Source: a virus
Taxonomy: Duplodnaviria; Heunggongvirae; Uroviricota; Caudoviricetes
Virus record (IMG/VR): IMGVR_UViG_2695420871_000006
Reading direction: 5' to 3' (one strand)
DNA length: 30,728 bases
Under the pieces are notes generated by a model that made no database searches, was not told the DNA's origin, and worked only from the letters and a program-made list of their open reading frames with translations. Positions 1 to 6,362 of the stretch are shown in pieces. A program made the translations under genes and the position numbers. Each line of letters starts with the position of its first letter. The stretch's first letter is position 1.

Positions 1-195
1 GAGCTGCATGACAAAGTCATCGGGCATTATCTGAACATAAAACACTATCAATAAGTTGGAGTCATTACCGGCTGGCGGAGCCTTCAGTCTATTTTAATGC
101 CGCCAACGGGCCGTGGAGAATTGCTCTGGCCTATTATCAGGAAGGGCCGGTAGATTATAGCGCGGGTAAACGTGGAACGTGTATAGCGCGGCGAT

Positions 196-309: not shown

Positions 310-1047
310 TCATTCACTCTCTTTCAAACCAGTTTTAACTGTTTGTGGTTTTGGGTAAGGCTGGACTTTGAATAGCTTTGTGTTAAGGCGTTTTCTGGCT
401 CTCTTGTCCAGAAACCGGATGTAACGAAACTGACGGAATTTATGAACACTGGCTCTGTCGATATTAGCCCGCAGATGTTCACCTCGCTGTCCTCCTCGTT
501 TGATTGCATTCTTGCAAATCTCGTGATACCACTCGCCATCAAGTTCATAGAATGTTGTTTCATGACTGCCTACATAATCAAAATTGCTTGCCTGGTACAC
601 GACACCAAGACAGCCACAACGCTCATCTGCAAACGACTGAACCCACTGCACCTGCGGATAAAGTTGTCTGATTAGTTTGAGCGCGTAACTGATTGCCCTT
701 GATTCAGAGTTTCTCGGCATACAGTCATGCAGCCATAACCGGTTAAGCTCCATATATTCGCGGTTCTGCGTGCCAGTTACGACGCGTGCACCATTGTTTG
801 GATTAAGGGCATAACCCCATTGCATTACGCCAACCAGCTCCCGTTCTGAAAATATGCCCAGATGAAGGTAGGAATTATTTACGAAACGATGGCTGTAATG
901 TTTATTGACGACGACCAGCCGGGCCAGCCAGCAACTTATTGTCTCAACCCGTAACTCACGGGAGCCATAACCGACGATATTGTCGTTATAGTGAATAAGT
1001 TCAGGCGTGCTGATGATACGGGATGTAACTTGCTTTCTGTTCCCCAC
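310..1047 (-). CDS. mom: Mom-like DNA (adenine) modification protein, anti-restriction. Start uncertain: GTG at 1045-1047 is proposed, but the frame is open up to 1242.
   Basis: Large ORF overlapping and immediately downstream of com, and the last gene before the phage end as in Mu. The proposed GTG lies in the 3' arm of a hairpin with AAGGAAA in the loop. Confidence 0.7.
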
Positions 1048-1201
1048 GACAGGATTTCCTTGTGTATGTGGGGTGCTCTGTGGCGCTCTGAGATGTGATT
1101 TGATTGAGGGTTTTACAGCGCGGACATTTAACTTCCAGATAACTGAAGCTGGCTCGTGCCAGTAGCTTGTTACAATGTCGGCACCGTATGTTTCGATACA
1201 T
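1001..1201 (-). CDS. com: Com, zinc-finger translational activator of mom (about 66 aa from ATG 1199-1201; the track ORF extends to a TTG at 1246)
   Basis: Protein [34 protein letters not shown]... has a CxxC...CPRC zinc finger resembling Mu Com as recalled from memory. AGGAGG (revcomp of 1212-1217) lies 10 nt upstream of the ATG. Confidence 0.8.
1042..1073 (-). promoter_or_regulatory. mRNA hairpin (CCCCAC, 20-nt loop, GUGGGG) sequestering the putative mom GUG start and SD; candidate Com-responsive translational switch
   Basis: Perfect 6-bp GC stem read from the sequence. Matches the established Com mechanism of unmasking the mom translation initiation region. Confidence 0.5.
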
Positions 1202-1248
1202 GGCCGCATAACCTCCTGCTTTGTTGTTGATATCTTTATCACTCAATC

Positions 1249-1885: not shown

Positions 1886-1920
1886 CAAACCGGCAGAGGA
1901 CACCACCGGTTTGTATTGTT
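1886..1920 (+). terminator. Hairpin CAAACCGG (12-nt loop) CCGGTTTG followed by TATTGTT; candidate intrinsic terminator for the plus-strand ORF 1458-1751
   Basis: 8-bp perfect stem plus a U-rich tail on the plus strand. Confidence 0.4.
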
Positions 1921-2173
1921 ACATCATGGTACTGTCAGTTCCGGGCTGAGCCGGGTCTGGTTGCTCTGGCTGCGCGTCGGTTTTCGGCTCATTATCAGCA
2001 TCACTGGCCGCAACTGCTGGCCCAATAAGTTTTGCCAGCACTTCATCAACGTAAGTGTCGATTTGTGCCTCAAAATCCTTGCGGACCTGCGCTTTCAGCA
2101 ACTTATTTACTTCACCGGAATACAGTGCCTGTTTTACCAGGTCTTCAGTGACGGTGCCTTTAATTTCTGGCAT
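1919..2173 (-). CDS. Hypothetical small acidic protein, 84 aa, with Pro/Gln-rich C-terminal tail
   Basis: ATG 2171-2173 with AGGAGG (revcomp of 2180-2185) 6 nt upstream. Estimated net charge about -8. Confidence 0.6.
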   Translation of the reverse strand: MPEIKGTVTEDLVKQALYSGEVNKLLKAQVRKDFEAQIDTYVDEVLAKLIGPAVAASDADNEPKTDAQPEQPDPAQPGTDSTMM

Positions 2174-2208: not shown

Positions 2209-2391
2209 TCAGGGCTGGGTCGGGTCTTTTGGGAGCGGAGTTACCTGCGCTGTTTTACTGAGTTTTTCAGCTGCTGCGTCCTCAATTTTGCGGCGAACAT
2301 AATTTCTGATGGCCTTATAACCACCACTCACCAGATATAACGCACATACTGCCGTGCAGAAATACAATAAAATAAGCTGTAAAAATGTCAT
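2209..2391 (-). CDS. Hypothetical small membrane protein, 60 aa from ATG 2389-2391: one N-terminal TM helix followed by a basic segment
   Basis: GGAGGG immediately upstream of the ATG. Hydrophobic FLQLILLYFCTAVCALYLV followed by KAIRNYVRRK (positive-inside). The track TTG start at 2403 is less likely. Confidence 0.6.
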   Translation of the reverse strand: MTFLQLILLYFCTAVCALYLVSGGYKAIRNYVRRKIEDAAAEKLSKTAQVTPLPKDPTQP

Positions 2392-2406
2392 TATCCCTCC
2401 CAATTA

Positions 2407-2433
2407 TTGACATGGTGTTGACACCGGTAATAT
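2407..2433 (+). promoter_or_regulatory. Candidate sigma70-type promoter on the plus strand: TTGACA (2407-2412; second copy 2418-2423), 15-bp spacer, TAATAT (2428-2433)
   Basis: Consensus hexamers read from the sequence. No plus-strand ORF lies downstream before the terminator at 2488-2529. Confidence 0.3.
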
Positions 2434-2487
2434 CTGTTAGGTAAAAAGGTGCACTGCATTTTTTGCTTTGGATATAACGATCTTTTT

Positions 2488-2529
2488 GCCGCCGGTTTCT
2501 TGTTTTCCCTTACCGGCGGCATTTTTTTA
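2488..2529 (+). terminator. Strong rho-independent terminator on the plus strand: GCCGCCGGT (15-nt pyrimidine-rich loop) ACCGGCGGC followed by ATTTTTTTAT
   Basis: 9-bp GC-rich perfect stem followed by a T7 run on the plus strand. On the minus strand it is followed by AAAAAG, so it is not a terminator for the esterase gene. Confidence 0.7.
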
Positions 2530-2535
2530 TCCTGC

Positions 2536-4590
2536 TTACGCGTTATTCACTTCCACCACGATACTGTCAATCAGTACCGGGTAAGTCGCATTTTTAGTGA
2601 TATCGGTCACGCGCAACTTGTCTGCCGTAAACGTGCCGACCGGAGACTGCGACAGCATGAATGGTGTCCCGTCCTTACCATCAATGACCGGCGTCACCTC
2701 AATACTGTTGTTACCGGCAAAACGGAAGCCCAGCGTATGCCATTCGTTATTAAATGCACCGAATGACCCCAGTTTCGTGTTTTGCGCCGTATTGCCCTTG
2801 TGGTACATCACGTTAAGGTCTGTGGCATCGCTCTGTACATAGAATGACGCCAGCAAGTTATGACCTGAATTACCTTCCAGCATGACACCCTGAGGCAGTG
2901 AAGAAACCGGCCAGTATAGCGCCAGTGCATACCGATTAGCCGTAAGCGCACCATCAAGTTTAAAACGACAACTGACAAGACCGCCTTTACCCAGGAGGTC
3001 TGCGCCATTACCAGCATCATGCTCAAGGTACCAGGAGGCTCTTCCTGTTTCCTTGGTCAGTTTCATTGCCTTACCCCCGCTGGCTCCGGCATCATCCACG
3101 ATTTGAGCCTTGCCACCTCCGGCAGCCCAACCCTGTGGTGTCAACCGTCCTTCAGACTCAGATGCCCGGTAAGCAAATAGCGTACTCATCGTCGTGGTGT
3201 CTGCGGGTGGCGTGGACGGTTTTGATGGTGTATCAGGTGACGGCTTCTCATCCGGTGGTGTCACGGTCTGCCCGCGCATCAATTCAGCCGTGCGCCCTGC
3301 ATGGAGCATAATAGCTGAGGCCAGACGGTCTGAAATGACGCCCCTGCGTGCCCATGAGCTGAAATGGCTGTCACGCTGTGTCGAAACAAAACTGCCCTGG
3401 GTTCGGGATGCTGCACCGTAATACCCGACAGCCACAATATCCGGGTCTTCCGCCGGAGCATTCGTTGGCGTGCTCTGTCCATTCTCATCCGTCAGGAACG
3501 GTACAAAGAAAATTTTCTGTGCTTCCTTGCCTTTGTAGCCACCGTATACTGCCTCATATTTATCGGTGCCAGCGTTTTTCCAGTAATACGTGGTATCACC
3601 GCAAATCCACGGCACCGTGGTGGCATTTCCACTCACGCACTGCGCAGCAAGCGGAGCCAGGTCAGTTCTGAACTGCTGAACCATGGCCGTGAATAAACTA
3701 TTATGCTGCTGGCTTCCTGAGGCAAGGTCTGCCTCTCCCTGCATCCAGACCACAGCCAGAAGTTTGTTTTTCGGGTTTTTCGCCAGCGCGACTTTGGTGC
3801 GGCTTACCAGGTCCTGATACAGAGGTTTACCGGCCCCCCAGCGTGAAGAATCAGCGGAAGCACCGCTGGCCTCACTGAATGAGCCGTCGGCTCCAGTGGT
3901 GAATGCTGACCCGCCACGACAACAGGGCACCAGAAGTATCCCCGCATTCTGTGGGATATAGGGAAGCAGTTTTTTGGCAATATGCAACCCCTGACTGACA
4001 GTCCCGTACTGGCCTTTTGCCAGATCAGCTTTCGGGTGGTTTATCCCGCTCATATCCTGAACATCATGCAGGCAGTGGTCTGCCGGAATGATGTCGTTGT
4101 ATGTACACGACGTACCGTTGGGCGTTACCGTACTGCGGCGTGCCAGTTGCTTAATGCGTGGGTCCGGGCGGTCAAACGAATCCGGTAACGGCAGCCCCTC
4201 GCCGTAGGCCATGCCATTTGACTGACCCGCGAGAATGACAACAAAGTAATATTCCGGCTCTGAACTGCTGCCATTCGTGCTACCGGAAGGCCCGGCGTTA
4301 TCCGGTGCATTCCAGTCGGAGGGCGTGAGCGTTCCGGCCACGTCAGATGTGATTGGAATGATGCCAGTCACGCCTGAACTGGTGATTTCTGCACTGGGAT
4401 TACCGGATACCGGCATTACCCATAATGGCTCTTTCGTGCTGAAGCGGATCACGCAGTCTGCGAAGGTGATCCCCCCTTTATTACCCGAAGGGCGGAAAGG
4501 GCTTTCAATAAATGCCACCGTGCCACCGGCAACCTTGACTGAAAACTCTCCGGGCATGGCGGAGAGCATTTTCCACTTGGAGTCTGACAT
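2536..4590 (-). CDS. Prophage cargo carbohydrate O-acetylesterase (SGNH/SASA family, NanS-p-like sialate O-acetylesterase) with N-terminal domain, Pro-rich linker and C-terminal lectin-like domain; 684 aa
   Basis: Motifs LAGQSNGMAYG, CCRGGSAF and VVWMQGEADL match the GQSN / WxQGE(S/A)D signatures of the sialate O-acetylesterase family. Linker PPDEKPSPDTPSKPSTPP. Sits downstream of tail fibre genes as nanS-p genes do in EHEC prophages. Confidence 0.65.
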   Translation of the reverse strand: MSDSKWKMLSAMPGEFSVKVAGGTVAFIESPFRPSGNKGGITFADCVIRFSTKEPLWVMPVSGNPSAEITSSGVTGIIPITSDVAGTLTPSDWNAPDNAGPSGSTNGSSSEPEYYFVVILAGQSNGMAYGEGLPLPDSFDRPDPRIKQLARRSTVTPNGTSCTYNDIIPADHCLHDVQDMSGINHPKADLAKGQYGTVSQGLHIAKKLLPYIPQNAGILLVPCCRGGSAFTTGADGSFSEASGASADSSRWGAGKPLYQDLVSRTKVALAKNPKNKLLAVVWMQGEADLASGSQQHNSLFTAMVQQFRTDLAPLAAQCVSGNATTVPWICGDTTYYWKNAGTDKYEAVYGGYKGKEAQKIFFVPFLTDENGQSTPTNAPAEDPDIVAVGYYGAASRTQGSFVSTQRDSHFSSWARRGVISDRLASAIMLHAGRTAELMRGQTVTPPDEKPSPDTPSKPSTPPADTTTMSTLFAYRASESEGRLTPQGWAAGGGKAQIVDDAGASGGKAMKLTKETGRASWYLEHDAGNGADLLGKGGLVSCRFKLDGALTANRYALALYWPVSSLPQGVMLEGNSGHNLLASFYVQSDATDLNVMYHKGNTAQNTKLGSFGAFNNEWHTLGFRFAGNNSIEVTPVIDGKDGTPFMLSQSPVGTFTADKLRVTDITKNATYPVLIDSIVVEVNNA

Positions 4591-4894
4591 CGTCTTTTCT
4601 GCCTGTTTCTGAATTAAACAGAGTCAGAATAACAACCGCTGATAAATATGTGTTTTGCGGAAATTCAAAAAAAGCATCACGGTACTTTTTGTGACGGAGC
4701 CGGTTAGGCAGGAACATAACGACAAAGGATGGACAGGCCAATACGATAACCGCATATTACCGGCTTATAATTGATTTAACGATTCATGACGCTGCGGTCA
4801 GCATCTGAAAATATGCGTTATTTCAGAAACCCCTTGCCTGTATATGGCGATATTATTATTCCTGTTTTTATCATTGATTTACATGGTGATGTTT

Positions 4895-5416
4895 ATGCAA
4901 CTGATTAATGTTAAACGATATTACCCGGAACAAAAACCCTTTGGTAATGATGTACAGTATTTTCAAAGTGAAGATGGTAAGGATTTCTATGAGTCCCTGC
5001 CATTATTCACCAAAAAATATAAACTTTGCATAACCCCTGACAGCGGTGTTATCTGCTCAATATCACAGGATGCTTCGGCGCTGTATCCTGCGGGTTTTTC
5101 CGTTGTTGAGACAGACGAATTACCTGAAGGTACTGATATTTCAGGTAACTGGAAGTTTGATAATGGTGTCATCTCACAACTCCCGGTTAACTATACCAAA
5201 AAAGCGGAAGCACTGCGCCAGTCATATCTTAATCAGGCATATGAAAAGATTAATGACTGGAGAACTGAGTTACAGCTGGGCACGATTAGTGATGAAAACA
5301 GAGCTGCGCTTACACGATGGATGAAATACATCAGTCAGGTGAAAAAAATGGAACTACCAGCGATTAAAAACAAAGCTGAATTTGACGCCATTAAATGGCC
5401 GGAGAAGCCTGAATAA
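4895..5416 (+). CDS. Tail fibre assembly chaperone (Tfa/U-like), opposite strand to the fibre gene; start at ATG 4895 proposed (track ORF starts at 4844)
   Basis: C-terminus ...TRWMKYISQVKKMELPAIKNKAEFDAIKWPEKPE is typical of Tfa proteins. The gene is AT-rich by eye. Confidence 0.75.
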   Translation: MQLINVKRYYPEQKPFGNDVQYFQSEDGKDFYESLPLFTKKYKLCITPDSGVICSISQDASALYPAGFSVVETDELPEGTDISGNWKFDNGVISQLPVNYTKKAEALRQSYLNQAYEKINDWRTELQLGTISDENRAALTRWMKYISQVKKMELPAIKNKAEFDAIKWPEKPE

Positions 5417-5419
5417 CAT

Positions 5420-5442
5420 AAAGGGTGCTTATCGCACCCTTT
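5420..5442. terminator. Bidirectional intrinsic terminator between convergent tfa (+) and tail fibre (-): AAAGGGTGC (5-nt loop) GCACCCTTT with flanking A/T runs
   Basis: Perfect 9-bp palindrome with a GC core, T-run downstream on both strands. Confidence 0.6.
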
Positions 5443-5450
5443 TCCTTTAA

Positions 5451-6362
5451 TCAGACGGATGAAACTGTGCGCCAGGCATTACCGATATATATCTGCACCG
5501 GACGGTAATAAACGCCTCCGATATTATCGGCTGAACTTTTCCCGGTATCCTGCACGTTAATACCTGAAAGCATACAACCAGAAGGTGCACCATAACTCCA
5601 GGACATTTCATTACCTCCGGGTGAATGGTAACTCTGGGCACCAAGCTGAACGTTGCTAACGTATTTGTTATCAGCAGTAGCTTCAGTCATACCGGAGGTA
5701 ATGTATATGTCCTGCGTCCCGTCAAAAGGAACGCCATTAATATTTCTTGGGGTGGAGAGTTTATTCGCGGCAACGGCGGTGCCGTCCGATGGCAGAGCAT
5801 TCGCCGCCTTATTCACCGTTTCCCGTAAACCGACGTTATCGATAAAAGCCCCTTTATCCGGAATGTCTGCGCCGTTCTGCTCCCTGCGCAGGTAACGGTT
5901 ATCACCTTCGCTTTTGCTGTAAACATCCAGATTATTACGGGCGGTTCCCTTATTCTCCAGGTCGGCGAGATTCTGATCCTTCGCCAGGGCATTAACGTCA
6001 CCGGGACCAAGACTGTTTTTTGTGGCAAGCGTCCCCAGACCAAGATAACCACGGGCCAGACGCTGGGCCTCCGCACCGGCATCAGCAATTTCTTTCAGGT
6101 TATTTTTCCGGGAAAAGGCATTCGCAGCGATAATGGCTTTAATGGACAGCGTAAGCTGGTTTAACTGCGCCTTATCCGGCTGAATACTGGCTTCAGCCAG
6201 AATATTCAGCAGTTCGGCCTGGAGAATATTCAGCCAGTCCTGACCAATCCAGCTGATACCTTTTTGTCCGTCACCTTCGGTAAACCAGGTTGTGGTATTA
6301 CTCTGCGCCGGTGCCAGCGCAGGCATATTCGCCACGCCGGAATTATTATCAACATGAAACAT
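5451..6362 (-). CDS. Tail fibre protein (Mu S-like), 303 aa
   Basis: Follows the baseplate gp47/gp48 homologues. Conserved fibre N-terminus MFHVDNNSGVANMPALAPAQS... and a Gly/Ser-rich tip. Confidence 0.8.
   Translation of the reverse strand: MFHVDNNSGVANMPALAPAQSNTTTWFTEGDGQKGISWIGQDWLNILQAELLNILAEASIQPDKAQLNQLTLSIKAIIAANAFSRKNNLKEIADAGAEAQRLARGYLGLGTLATKNSLGPGDVNALAKDQNLADLENKGTARNNLDVYSKSEGDNRYLRREQNGADIPDKGAFIDNVGLRETVNKAANALPSDGTAVAANKLSTPRNINGVPFDGTQDIYITSGMTEATADNKYVSNVQLGAQSYHSPGGNEMSWSYGAPSGCMLSGINVQDTGKSSADNIGGVYYRPVQIYIGNAWRTVSSV

Follow-up and report, generated by a model that had tools for sequence, protein, structure and literature searches.

Tree et al. 2014 (PMC4104026) recorded in their Table S2 a small RNA (sRNA) of the O157:H7 strain Sakai of Escherichia coli, EcOnc33, which is encoded in prophage Sp6 antisense to ECs1527/1528 and has a predicted terminator, a peak in 5 of 5 datasets of Hfq cross-linking and analysis of cDNA (CRAC), a CRAC area (2.6e7) among the larger ones of that table, and a northern band of about 71 nucleotides (nt). 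In Table S1B of the same work the ECs1527...ECs1528 spacer ranks 16th among the Hfq-bound intergenic regions, with reads that are nearly one-stranded (for example, 239,630 versus 351), and rows of Table EV7 in Waters et al. 2017 (PMC5286369), a study by RNase E cross-linking, ligation and sequencing of hybrids (CLASH), print read sequences of EcOnc33. Full-text literature searches for EcOnc33 and for ECs1527/ECs1528 found no paper that discusses either in its main text, and Rfam holds no family for EcOnc33. Here we describe a counterpart of this RNA in a stretch of 30,728 nt from a Caudoviricetes record of IMG/VR (IMGVR_UViG_2695420871_000006; hereafter the window, numbered from its first letter), which is the right-hand end of a Mu-like prophage. 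The element lies on the plus strand, antisense between a gene for a carbohydrate esterase and a gene for a small DUF1378 protein, and is a real sRNA gene, an unannotated member of the Hfq-associated sRNAs that prophages carry at moron boundaries and not new in kind. Our reading of it, to which we assign a probability of about 0.72, is that of a free-standing gene of about 75 nt (2454-2528), an ortholog of EcOnc33 antisense in its gene cassette, whose product would be bound by Hfq and act in trans through its 5' end.

The EcOnc33 locus of Sakai and its counterpart in the window

A 166-nt query spanning the spacer (window 2380-2545) was 81.5% identical to the ECs1527-ECs1528 junction of Sakai Sp6 (blastn with the spacer, E 9e-36), and the RNA of the window shares 68 of 75 nt with the one predicted for Sakai. 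Homology between the window and Sp6 runs from 2258 to 4260 at 76% overall, with the spacer somewhat better conserved than the coding flanks. Both copies occupy the same slot between a nanS-p-type esterase and DUF1378, in the same antisense orientation and with the same promoter layout, and both have the stem GCCGCCGG/CCGGCGGC, a U7 tail, the 5' sequence CUGCAU...UUUUGCUUUGGAU and the loop core CUUGUUUUCCCU. They differ in that the loop of the window copy is 6 nt shorter, two extra U precede its stem and G7 of the 5' segment is replaced by U, and in that the window copy belongs to a Mu-like prophage and not to a lambdoid late operon.

A further difference from Sp6 concerns the other side of the esterase gene. 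In Sp6 (locus L002, 7238-7404) an STnc100 RNA (94 bits in Rfam), which the preprint of Zhu, Shabalina and Storz 2026 relates to PasD, is found immediately upstream of the esterase, whereas the window is devoid of an STnc100/PasD-like RNA in that position. Because no STnc100 match was found in window 4590-4850, the cassette that moved into the Mu-like prophage is read as carrying the downstream sRNA only.

The published reads could be placed on the Sakai locus after a correction, as the coordinates of Tree et al. refer to an older Sakai assembly: the shift to NC_002695.2 is 134-142 nt as judged from AsxR and EcOnc03, and the CLASH read from the 5' end of EcOnc33 fixes it at 140-141 nt. With the latter shift, the CRAC peak spans from just past the -10 element to the terminator loop. 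Among the rows of Table EV7 examined, an intramolecular EcOnc33 hybrid consists of CCTGCCCCGGCGGCCTTT joined to ATTTGCCGCCGGTTCTGG, two halves that are found verbatim in the Sakai locus, each made up of one stem arm and a few flanking bases, and another read, CTGCATGTTTTGCTTTGGAT, begins at the predicted 5' end of the Sakai RNA. The Sakai ortholog of the window RNA is EcOnc33. From this ortholog we infer that the RNA would be expressed in the strain of the window, depend on Hfq, act in trans and have arcA as a target.

Promoter, terminator and conservation

To follow the locus across prophages, 8 E. coli variants and 80 IMG/VR loci fetched through DUF1378 were compared, which yielded 31 distinct junction sequences; 15 distinct sequences made up the alignment of the EcOnc33 type. 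Direct reading of the plus strand of the window confirmed the two TTGACA hexamers (2407-2412 and 2418-2423) and the TAATAT (2428-2433, 15 nt after the first TTGACA) pointed out in an earlier note on this DNA, the pair of hexamers forming an 11-bp direct repeat unit. The second hexamer, 2418..2423, is invariant wherever relatives carry both and is the likely functional -35; the upstream duplicate reads TTGATA, TCGACA, TTGGCA or TTAATA in relatives and is probably not a working -35. TAATAT is confined to the clade of the window, with TAATAC or TAATGC in all other variants, and is probably unused. The likely -10 is TAAAAA (2442..2447), 18 nt past the second TTGACA. Some variants have an 11-nt deletion that leaves a single TTGACA and retains the 17/18-nt spacing to TAAAA[AC], and TTGAC[AT]-N17/18-TA[AG]AA[AC] is shared by 30 of the 31 junction variants, those with unrelated RNA bodies included.

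About 7 nt downstream of the Sakai equivalent of this -10 is where both the Hfq-CRAC peak and the 5' junction seen by CLASH begin. We therefore regard the second TTGACA-N18-TAAAAA (2418-2447) as the likely working promoter, with a predicted transcription start near 2454, at CUGCAU, though a start anywhere in 2448-2454 is possible. The earlier note had envisaged a short non-coding plus-strand transcript that begins near 2440, with TAATAT as its -10, and ends at the T7. Its end agrees with the EcOnc33 ortholog and the CLASH reads; its start is probably misplaced, given the TAATAC or TAATGC of the relatives and a geometry that points to 2454. A weaker or minor start around 2440, from TTGACA-N15-TAATAT, may nevertheless be used in the clade of the window.

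The terminator proposed in the same note proved to be as described. A hairpin at 2488..2520 (+) has a 9-bp GC stem, GCCGCCGGU/ACCGGCGGC, and a 15-nt pyrimidine-rich loop; its left arm, GCCGCCGGT (2488-2496), pairs with ACCGGCGGC (2512-2520) around the loop UUCUUGUUUUCCCUU (2497-2511), and A2521 and a T7 tract (2522..2528) come next. Folding of 2436-2529 gave -28.9 kcal/mol (z = -3.74), a value reached by none of 200 shuffles. On the minus strand an A7 precedes the hairpin and AAAAAGAUCG follows it, with no U-run after it, and for this reason the hairpin would terminate transcription on the plus strand only, as had been claimed. A T-run of at least six follows the hairpin in 29 of the 31 variants and an interrupted one in a further variant. 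The only junction without antisense promoter, hairpin and T-run belongs to IMG/VR loci L091/L092, a natural "empty slot" in which the short esterase-DUF1378 spacer holds a small hairpin (GCCGGATAAATTCCCGGC) lacking a T-run.

The module that Hfq binds combines a hairpin with a U-rich stretch and, at the 3' end, a poly-U tail, and the layout of the window RNA fits it: UCUUUUU (2481..2487), a putative Hfq contact, stands immediately 5' of the stem, and the T7 would supply both the U-tail of the terminator and the Hfq-binding 3' end. At the other end, the predicted single-stranded segment CUGCAUUUUUUGCUUUGGAU (2454..2473) is nearly invariant in the 15 variants and is a candidate seed. The predicted RNA (2454..2528) thus displays the whole anatomy of an Hfq-dependent trans-acting sRNA, namely its own promoter, an intrinsic terminator with U-tail, a U-rich stretch and an unpaired conserved seed; it scores 87.5 bits against a covariance model of the 15 variants, by construction.

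A generic consensus scan listed neither promoter nor terminator here, because the loop exceeds its 8-nt limit, TAATAT has a 15-nt spacer and TAAAAA does not end in T; at this locus, then, matching to a consensus tells nothing by itself. What lifts the feature above chance is that the promoter geometry, the GC hairpin and the T-run recur in 30 of the 31 junction versions.

Homologs of the 166-nt query were found in 361 of 5426 complete E. coli genomes, 21 of them at 99% identity or more and 329 at 80-90%. Relatives occur in E. coli chromosomes, on two plasmids and in IMG/VR contigs; strain JE86-ST05 has the identical locus (NZ_AP022815.1, about 810,197-810,362). Searches of the phage GenBank collection in near and distant modes produced no match to the region, and a scan of GTDB genomes with the DUF1378 alignment gave 59 pattern hits, none of which was confirmed. 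Within the EcOnc33 type, the 5' segment CUGCAU-UUUUGCUUUGGAU, the stem core, the loop core CUUGUUUUCCCU and the U-tail are invariant or nearly so (CUGCAU at the predicted 5' end differs in 1 of the 15 variants), and variation is concentrated in the segment between the 5' part and the stem and, as insertions and deletions, in the loop flanks. Across junction types the stems align on GCC(A/G)G...C(U/C)GGC, and in 5 of 10 pairs both sides have changed in a compensatory way; at one pair, 9 sequences have A-U and 8 have G-C, with zero mismatches. The cross-type covariation score was 0.232, against 0.140 ± 0.023 for shuffles, in a set of related sequences that represents few independent events. In this alignment pairing stood at 82% in register and fell to 22-58% in slid registers.

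A candidate arcA link and alternative roles

In the mechanism that we favour, transcription would start about 7 nt past the TTGACA-N18-TAAAAA promoter and stop at the GC hairpin with its U7, just short of the esterase stop codon. With a promoter of its own and in this orientation, the gene would be independent of phage late transcription, so that the RNA could be made in a lysogen. Hfq would bind through the U-rich stretch, the hairpin and the U-tail, and the conserved unpaired 5' end would act in trans on translation-initiation regions of host mRNAs. A candidate partner comes from the CLASH data for the ortholog: in the hybrid examined from Table EV7 of Waters et al. 2017 (PMC5286369), the 5' end of the Sakai sRNA (the equivalent of 2454-2473) is joined to AUUUAGGUAGCAAAC-AUG-CAGACC, the start region of ECs_5359, which is arcA. 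This arcA-EcOnc33 chimera is listed there with 5 unique reads, replicated and in both orientations, at a false discovery rate of 2.7e-4. Duplex prediction between the 5' 30 nt of the Sakai RNA and the start/Shine-Dalgarno region of arcA gave -22.4 kcal/mol, with 0.25% of shuffles as good, and the pairing would span the start codon and the Shine-Dalgarno region, with AUGCAG of the mRNA opposite CUGCAU of the sRNA. The window variant reached -17.5 kcal/mol against the arcA start region, with 2.7% of shuffles as good.

Any read-through mRNA across the esterase-DUF1378 junction would contain 75 nt to which the RNA is perfectly complementary, and the main role of the RNA might instead be in cis, on the cassette itself, through RNase III cleavage, through uncoupling of the esterase from DUF1378/DUF826 (in lambdoid prophages, from the lysis genes) or through interference with converging transcription. 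Such a role would suit a gene that is antisense between co-oriented genes in every variant. No consensus minus-strand promoter for DUF1378 was found in the spacer, which makes it probable that transcripts from upstream read through into DUF1378, and PasA, from the same slot in enteropathogenic E. coli (EPEC), was ligated in RIL-seq, the sequencing of ligated pairs of interacting RNAs, to the 3' end of adjacent esterase mRNAs. We nevertheless hold it improbable, as the late operon of a lambdoid lysogen is silent and yet the ortholog is abundant on Hfq, and the CLASH partner recovered in the row examined is a host mRNA. The complete difference of RNA bodies among junction types is neutral on this point, since a cis function needs no set sequence. 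A cis effect on the cassette may coexist with action in trans. On the other hand, the locus might hold an insulator and no stable functional RNA, the hairpin and T7 blocking stray antisense transcription into the esterase gene and the hexamers being fortuitous; the terminator does abut the stop codon of the esterase gene, and the promoter goes uncalled in the consensus scan. The discrete, abundant and Hfq-bound RNA made by the ortholog, together with a promoter geometry kept in 30 of 31 variants and the conservation of the 5' segment and loop core, makes this very unlikely.

The earlier note had also suggested that the pyrimidine-rich loop pairs with the Shine-Dalgarno sequences of the neighbouring small genes, after the manner of a type I antitoxin that blocks translation of DUF1378 (and DUF826). 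Some features are in its favour: DUF1378 has 60 aa with a hydrophobic N-terminal segment, the sRNA promoter is divergent from it, and the loop core is conserved beyond what a terminator loop needs. When the pairing check proposed in the note was run, however, the loop did no better than shuffled loops against the start regions of DUF1378 and DUF826 (-11.3 and -11.7 kcal/mol; 0.43 and 0.32 of shuffled loops at least as good), and the two genes ranked in the middle of the 27 translation-initiation regions of the window. In lambdoid prophages both are standard members of the late operon and precede the holin, and we know of no toxicity of either. The RNA ligated to the ortholog in the hybrid examined is arcA, through the 5' end, and not a neighbouring gene, so the antitoxin idea finds no support and we judge it highly improbable. 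A comparison with the divergently encoded type I antitoxins of the pairs IstR-1/tisB, OhsC/shoB and OrzO/zorO leads to the same place: an sRNA is likewise divergent from a gene for a small hydrophobic protein, but complementarity to the start region of that gene is not above background in the window, and the neighbour is an ordinary late-operon gene. Just as hard to credit is a sense-strand role, in which the hairpin would be a 3' stabiliser or processing site of the esterase message on the late or moron mRNA. The hairpin does form in minus-strand RNA as well, right after the esterase stop codon, but the conserved T-run is there an upstream A-run, for which we know of no role, no U-tract follows the hairpin, and the Hfq-CRAC reads are biased about 700-fold to the antisense strand.

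Several observations weigh against a trans-acting EcOnc33 ortholog or narrow what can be said of it. The expression evidence is all from the Sakai ortholog, another sequence variant, whose northern band, at about 71 nt, falls short of the 78-80 nt predicted for Sakai; moreover, that the "sense" column of Table S1B reports the minus strand, antisense to the late genes, was deduced from its spf, ssrA, cyaR, ryhB and sroC rows. The proposed -10, TAAAAA, is without the usual final T, and the start site is predicted rather than mapped. The stem is invariant among the 15 sequences of the EcOnc33 type, which accordingly show no covariation in it. As for arcA, the G7 to U change of the window falls in the middle of the duplex, the interaction appears in a supplementary table of Waters et al. 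2017 (PMC5286369) and is absent from the main text, and the chimera is the one EcOnc33-mRNA hybrid examined in Table EV7, which has about 40 further EcOnc33 rows. Put forward from a CLASH ligation of the ortholog and a duplex prediction, arcA is a candidate target.

The gene cassette, related RNAs and the prophage

The sRNA gene belongs to a minus-strand cassette of three protein-coding genes located between the tail-fibre region and com-mom. The first, 2536..4590 (-), encodes a SASA/DUF6645 carbohydrate (sialate O-acetyl) esterase-like protein (Pfam DUF6645 9e-67, SASA 4e-13) homologous to Sakai ECs_1527; the second, 2209..2391 (-), divergent from the sRNA promoter, encodes the DUF1378 small membrane protein (Pfam 9e-32), with its hydrophobic segment at the N-terminus; the last, 1919..2173 (-), encodes a DUF826 protein (Pfam 6e-16). 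A spacer of 144 nt separates the DUF1378 start codon (2389-2391) from the esterase stop codon (2536-2538), which comes 7 nt after the sRNA terminator. No credible plus-strand open reading frame (ORF) was found upstream of the hairpin, those listed being all antisense to DUF826/DUF1378. In Sakai Sp6 the order is Q, the esterase ECs_1527 (annotated as 9-O-acetyl-N-acetylneuraminic acid deacetylase), DUF1378 ECs_1528, DUF826 ECs_1529, holin and endolysin; the same three genes are part of the late operon in lambdoid prophages, where DUF1378 and DUF826 are ordinary members ahead of the holin. In the window, a Mom-family protein and a Com zinc-ribbon protein are encoded beyond the cassette at 310-1246 (-), followed by tail, baseplate and head genes, likewise on the minus strand. 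Between DUF826 and com, the opposite strand has an ORF of 97 aa (1458-1751, +), a RefSeq hypothetical protein (WP_000571916.1) in JE86-ST05, for which no Pfam match was found.

Other sRNAs are known from the same position. PasC and PasA of EPEC E2348/69, described by Pearl Mizrahi et al. 2021 and in the preprint of Zhu, Shabalina and Storz 2026, lie in the same slot, antisense and just downstream with respect to a SASA sialate esterase gene, with the terminator abutting the esterase stop codon and a TTGACA upstream; they are 79-85 nt long and Hfq-dependent, and end in a 3' stem-loop with poly-U whose core, GCC(A/G)G...C(U/C)GGC, can be aligned with that of the window through compensatory changes. 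They differ from the window RNA in the downstream gene, a holin (holin-lysozyme) in place of DUF1378/DUF826 followed by com-mom, and in the C-terminal domains of the esterases, which are not homologous, similarity being confined to window 3290-4263. With blastn, the window spacer gave only T-run and short word matches to PasA/PasC of E2348/69 (E at least 0.26). The covariance model of the window type found the PasA/PasC loci weakly (E 1.1 for the unit downstream of PasA, 8.9 for PasC), and on the other slot types and the Pas loci together it gave weak, terminator-driven hits at the expected positions (E 0.06-9). With blastn null and covariance hits weak, we do not place the window RNA in the PasA/PasC family, and regard PasA/PasC as positional analogues that possibly share its chassis. 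The window RNA would escape the BLAST survey of the 2026 preprint, which used similarity to PasA/PasC as its criterion.

In prophage PP2 of E2348/69 (L003 2760-2860, minus strand), the interval from PasA to the stop codon of the esterase was seen to contain a second full unit, in which a TTGACA is followed, after about 55 nt, by the stem GCCAGCG/CGCTGGC and a T7; its terminator is PasC-like and its end coincides with that of the "minor 236-nt" PasA species. Because of this second full unit, the PP2 slot reads as holding a tandem duplication.

Esr41 (Rfam RF02676; EcOnc14), from the SpLE1 island of enterohaemorrhagic E. coli (EHEC), is of similar size to the window RNA and has a 5' U-rich segment, the stem CGCCGGCA/UGCUGGCG and a U7 tail, and unlike the window RNA it does not adjoin an esterase gene. 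In a local search, the Rfam Esr41 model matched 2448-2530 over its full length at 22.2 bits (E 0.02-0.04), far below its gathering score of 102, and the window RNA was not assigned to this family. In the opposite direction, the covariance model of the window type did not find Esr41. At gathering thresholds Rfam returned nothing in the whole window, and its sub-threshold matches to Esr41, Spot 42 and STnc480 there are leads only. A separate observation was made in an IMG/VR locus (L079 1067-1139, minus strand), where the esterase-DUF1378 slot holds a different body type that scores 30.4 bits with the Esr41 model. This body resembles Esr41 of Sakai (L093 3013-3110) in the pattern CUCCAUGGGG...CCGCCAGC...GCUGGCGU8, and the two have AACTATTTTT in common in the promoter spacer, which suggests, as a lead only, that Esr41 of the SpLE1 island may derive from a prophage esterase-DUF1378 slot.

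The anti-sRNAs AsxR and AgvB (Tree et al. 2014) and the RNAs convergent with them, from the moron site at PR', resemble the window RNA in being prophage-borne, Hfq-bound and antisense to the late operon at a moron boundary, and in combining conserved terminators with variable 5' ends. They lie on the other side of the esterase, however, between stx (or another moron) and the esterase gene, and are unrelated in sequence; AsxR and AgvB sponge core sRNAs, and there is no evidence of sponging for the window RNA.

Outside the cassette, other features of the prophage were recorded. Window 1-181 consists of the terminal ~70 nt of an IS1A-family element followed by ~110 nt matching ompG, and it is only from 181 onwards that the window is homologous to other copies of the prophage. 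Here, thus, ompG is the site of the Mu-like prophage or of its IS1-truncated flank, and the near-identical prophage of JE86-ST05 adjoins rhsC/ybfB; differing insertion sites are consistent with a transposable phage. Directly upstream of the com (1246..1001)-mom (..310) operon, at 1245-1269, is a perfect 9-bp palindrome, AATCGATCG-ACAAAAA-CGATCGATT, with two GATC sites, which the consensus scan called merely as a terminator-like site and which we take to resemble the Dam-methylation/OxyR control region of phage Mu mom. In 4590-5850, compared with the JE86-ST05 prophage, the invertase (recombinase) gene is gone except for its last ~67 nt and homology ends at 4743; the tail-fibre-assembly gene at 4844-5416 (+) is only 84.5% identical to the JE86-ST05 copy, and a 165-nt piece (5686-5850) matches that prophage in inverted orientation. 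The region has the look of a G-segment-like invertible stretch for tail fibres that deletion of its invertase has frozen.

Taken together, the junctions suggest that one promoter/terminator chassis hosts several unrelated sRNA bodies, PasA/PasC and possibly relatives of Esr41 among them. We tentatively extend this to a more specific proposal, which we think rather unlikely to be right in full: the esterase-DUF1378 (or holin) junction would be a conserved "sRNA slot", a fixed scaffold with interchangeable bodies, whose EcOnc33-type seed represses ArcA translation, so that the Mu-like prophage re-tunes host respiratory control. The scaffold would comprise TTGAC[AT]-N17/18-TAAAA[AC], a terminator of the form (C)CGCC(A/G)G... 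and a U7 tail abutting the esterase stop codon. Bodies of at least five types would suit this scaffold, namely the EcOnc33 type, a version bearing a duplication of 15 nt, two more types, one that is Esr41-like, and PasA/PasC.

In pathogenic E. coli, host regulation is rewired by prophage sRNAs, which genome annotation nevertheless omits. The present finding extends this known theme and does not overturn current understanding. The cassette of esterase, sRNA, DUF1378 and DUF826 travels as a unit across unrelated phage types, from lambdoid late operons to a Mu-like prophage, and the CLASH link between EcOnc33 and the arcA start codon, unexploited so far, offers a concrete hypothesis on what its RNA does. 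If the slot proposal is true, phages would swap host-directed seeds on one chassis, and the EcOnc33-type seed would repress translation of ArcA, a global redox regulator, with a shift in the respiratory control of the host.

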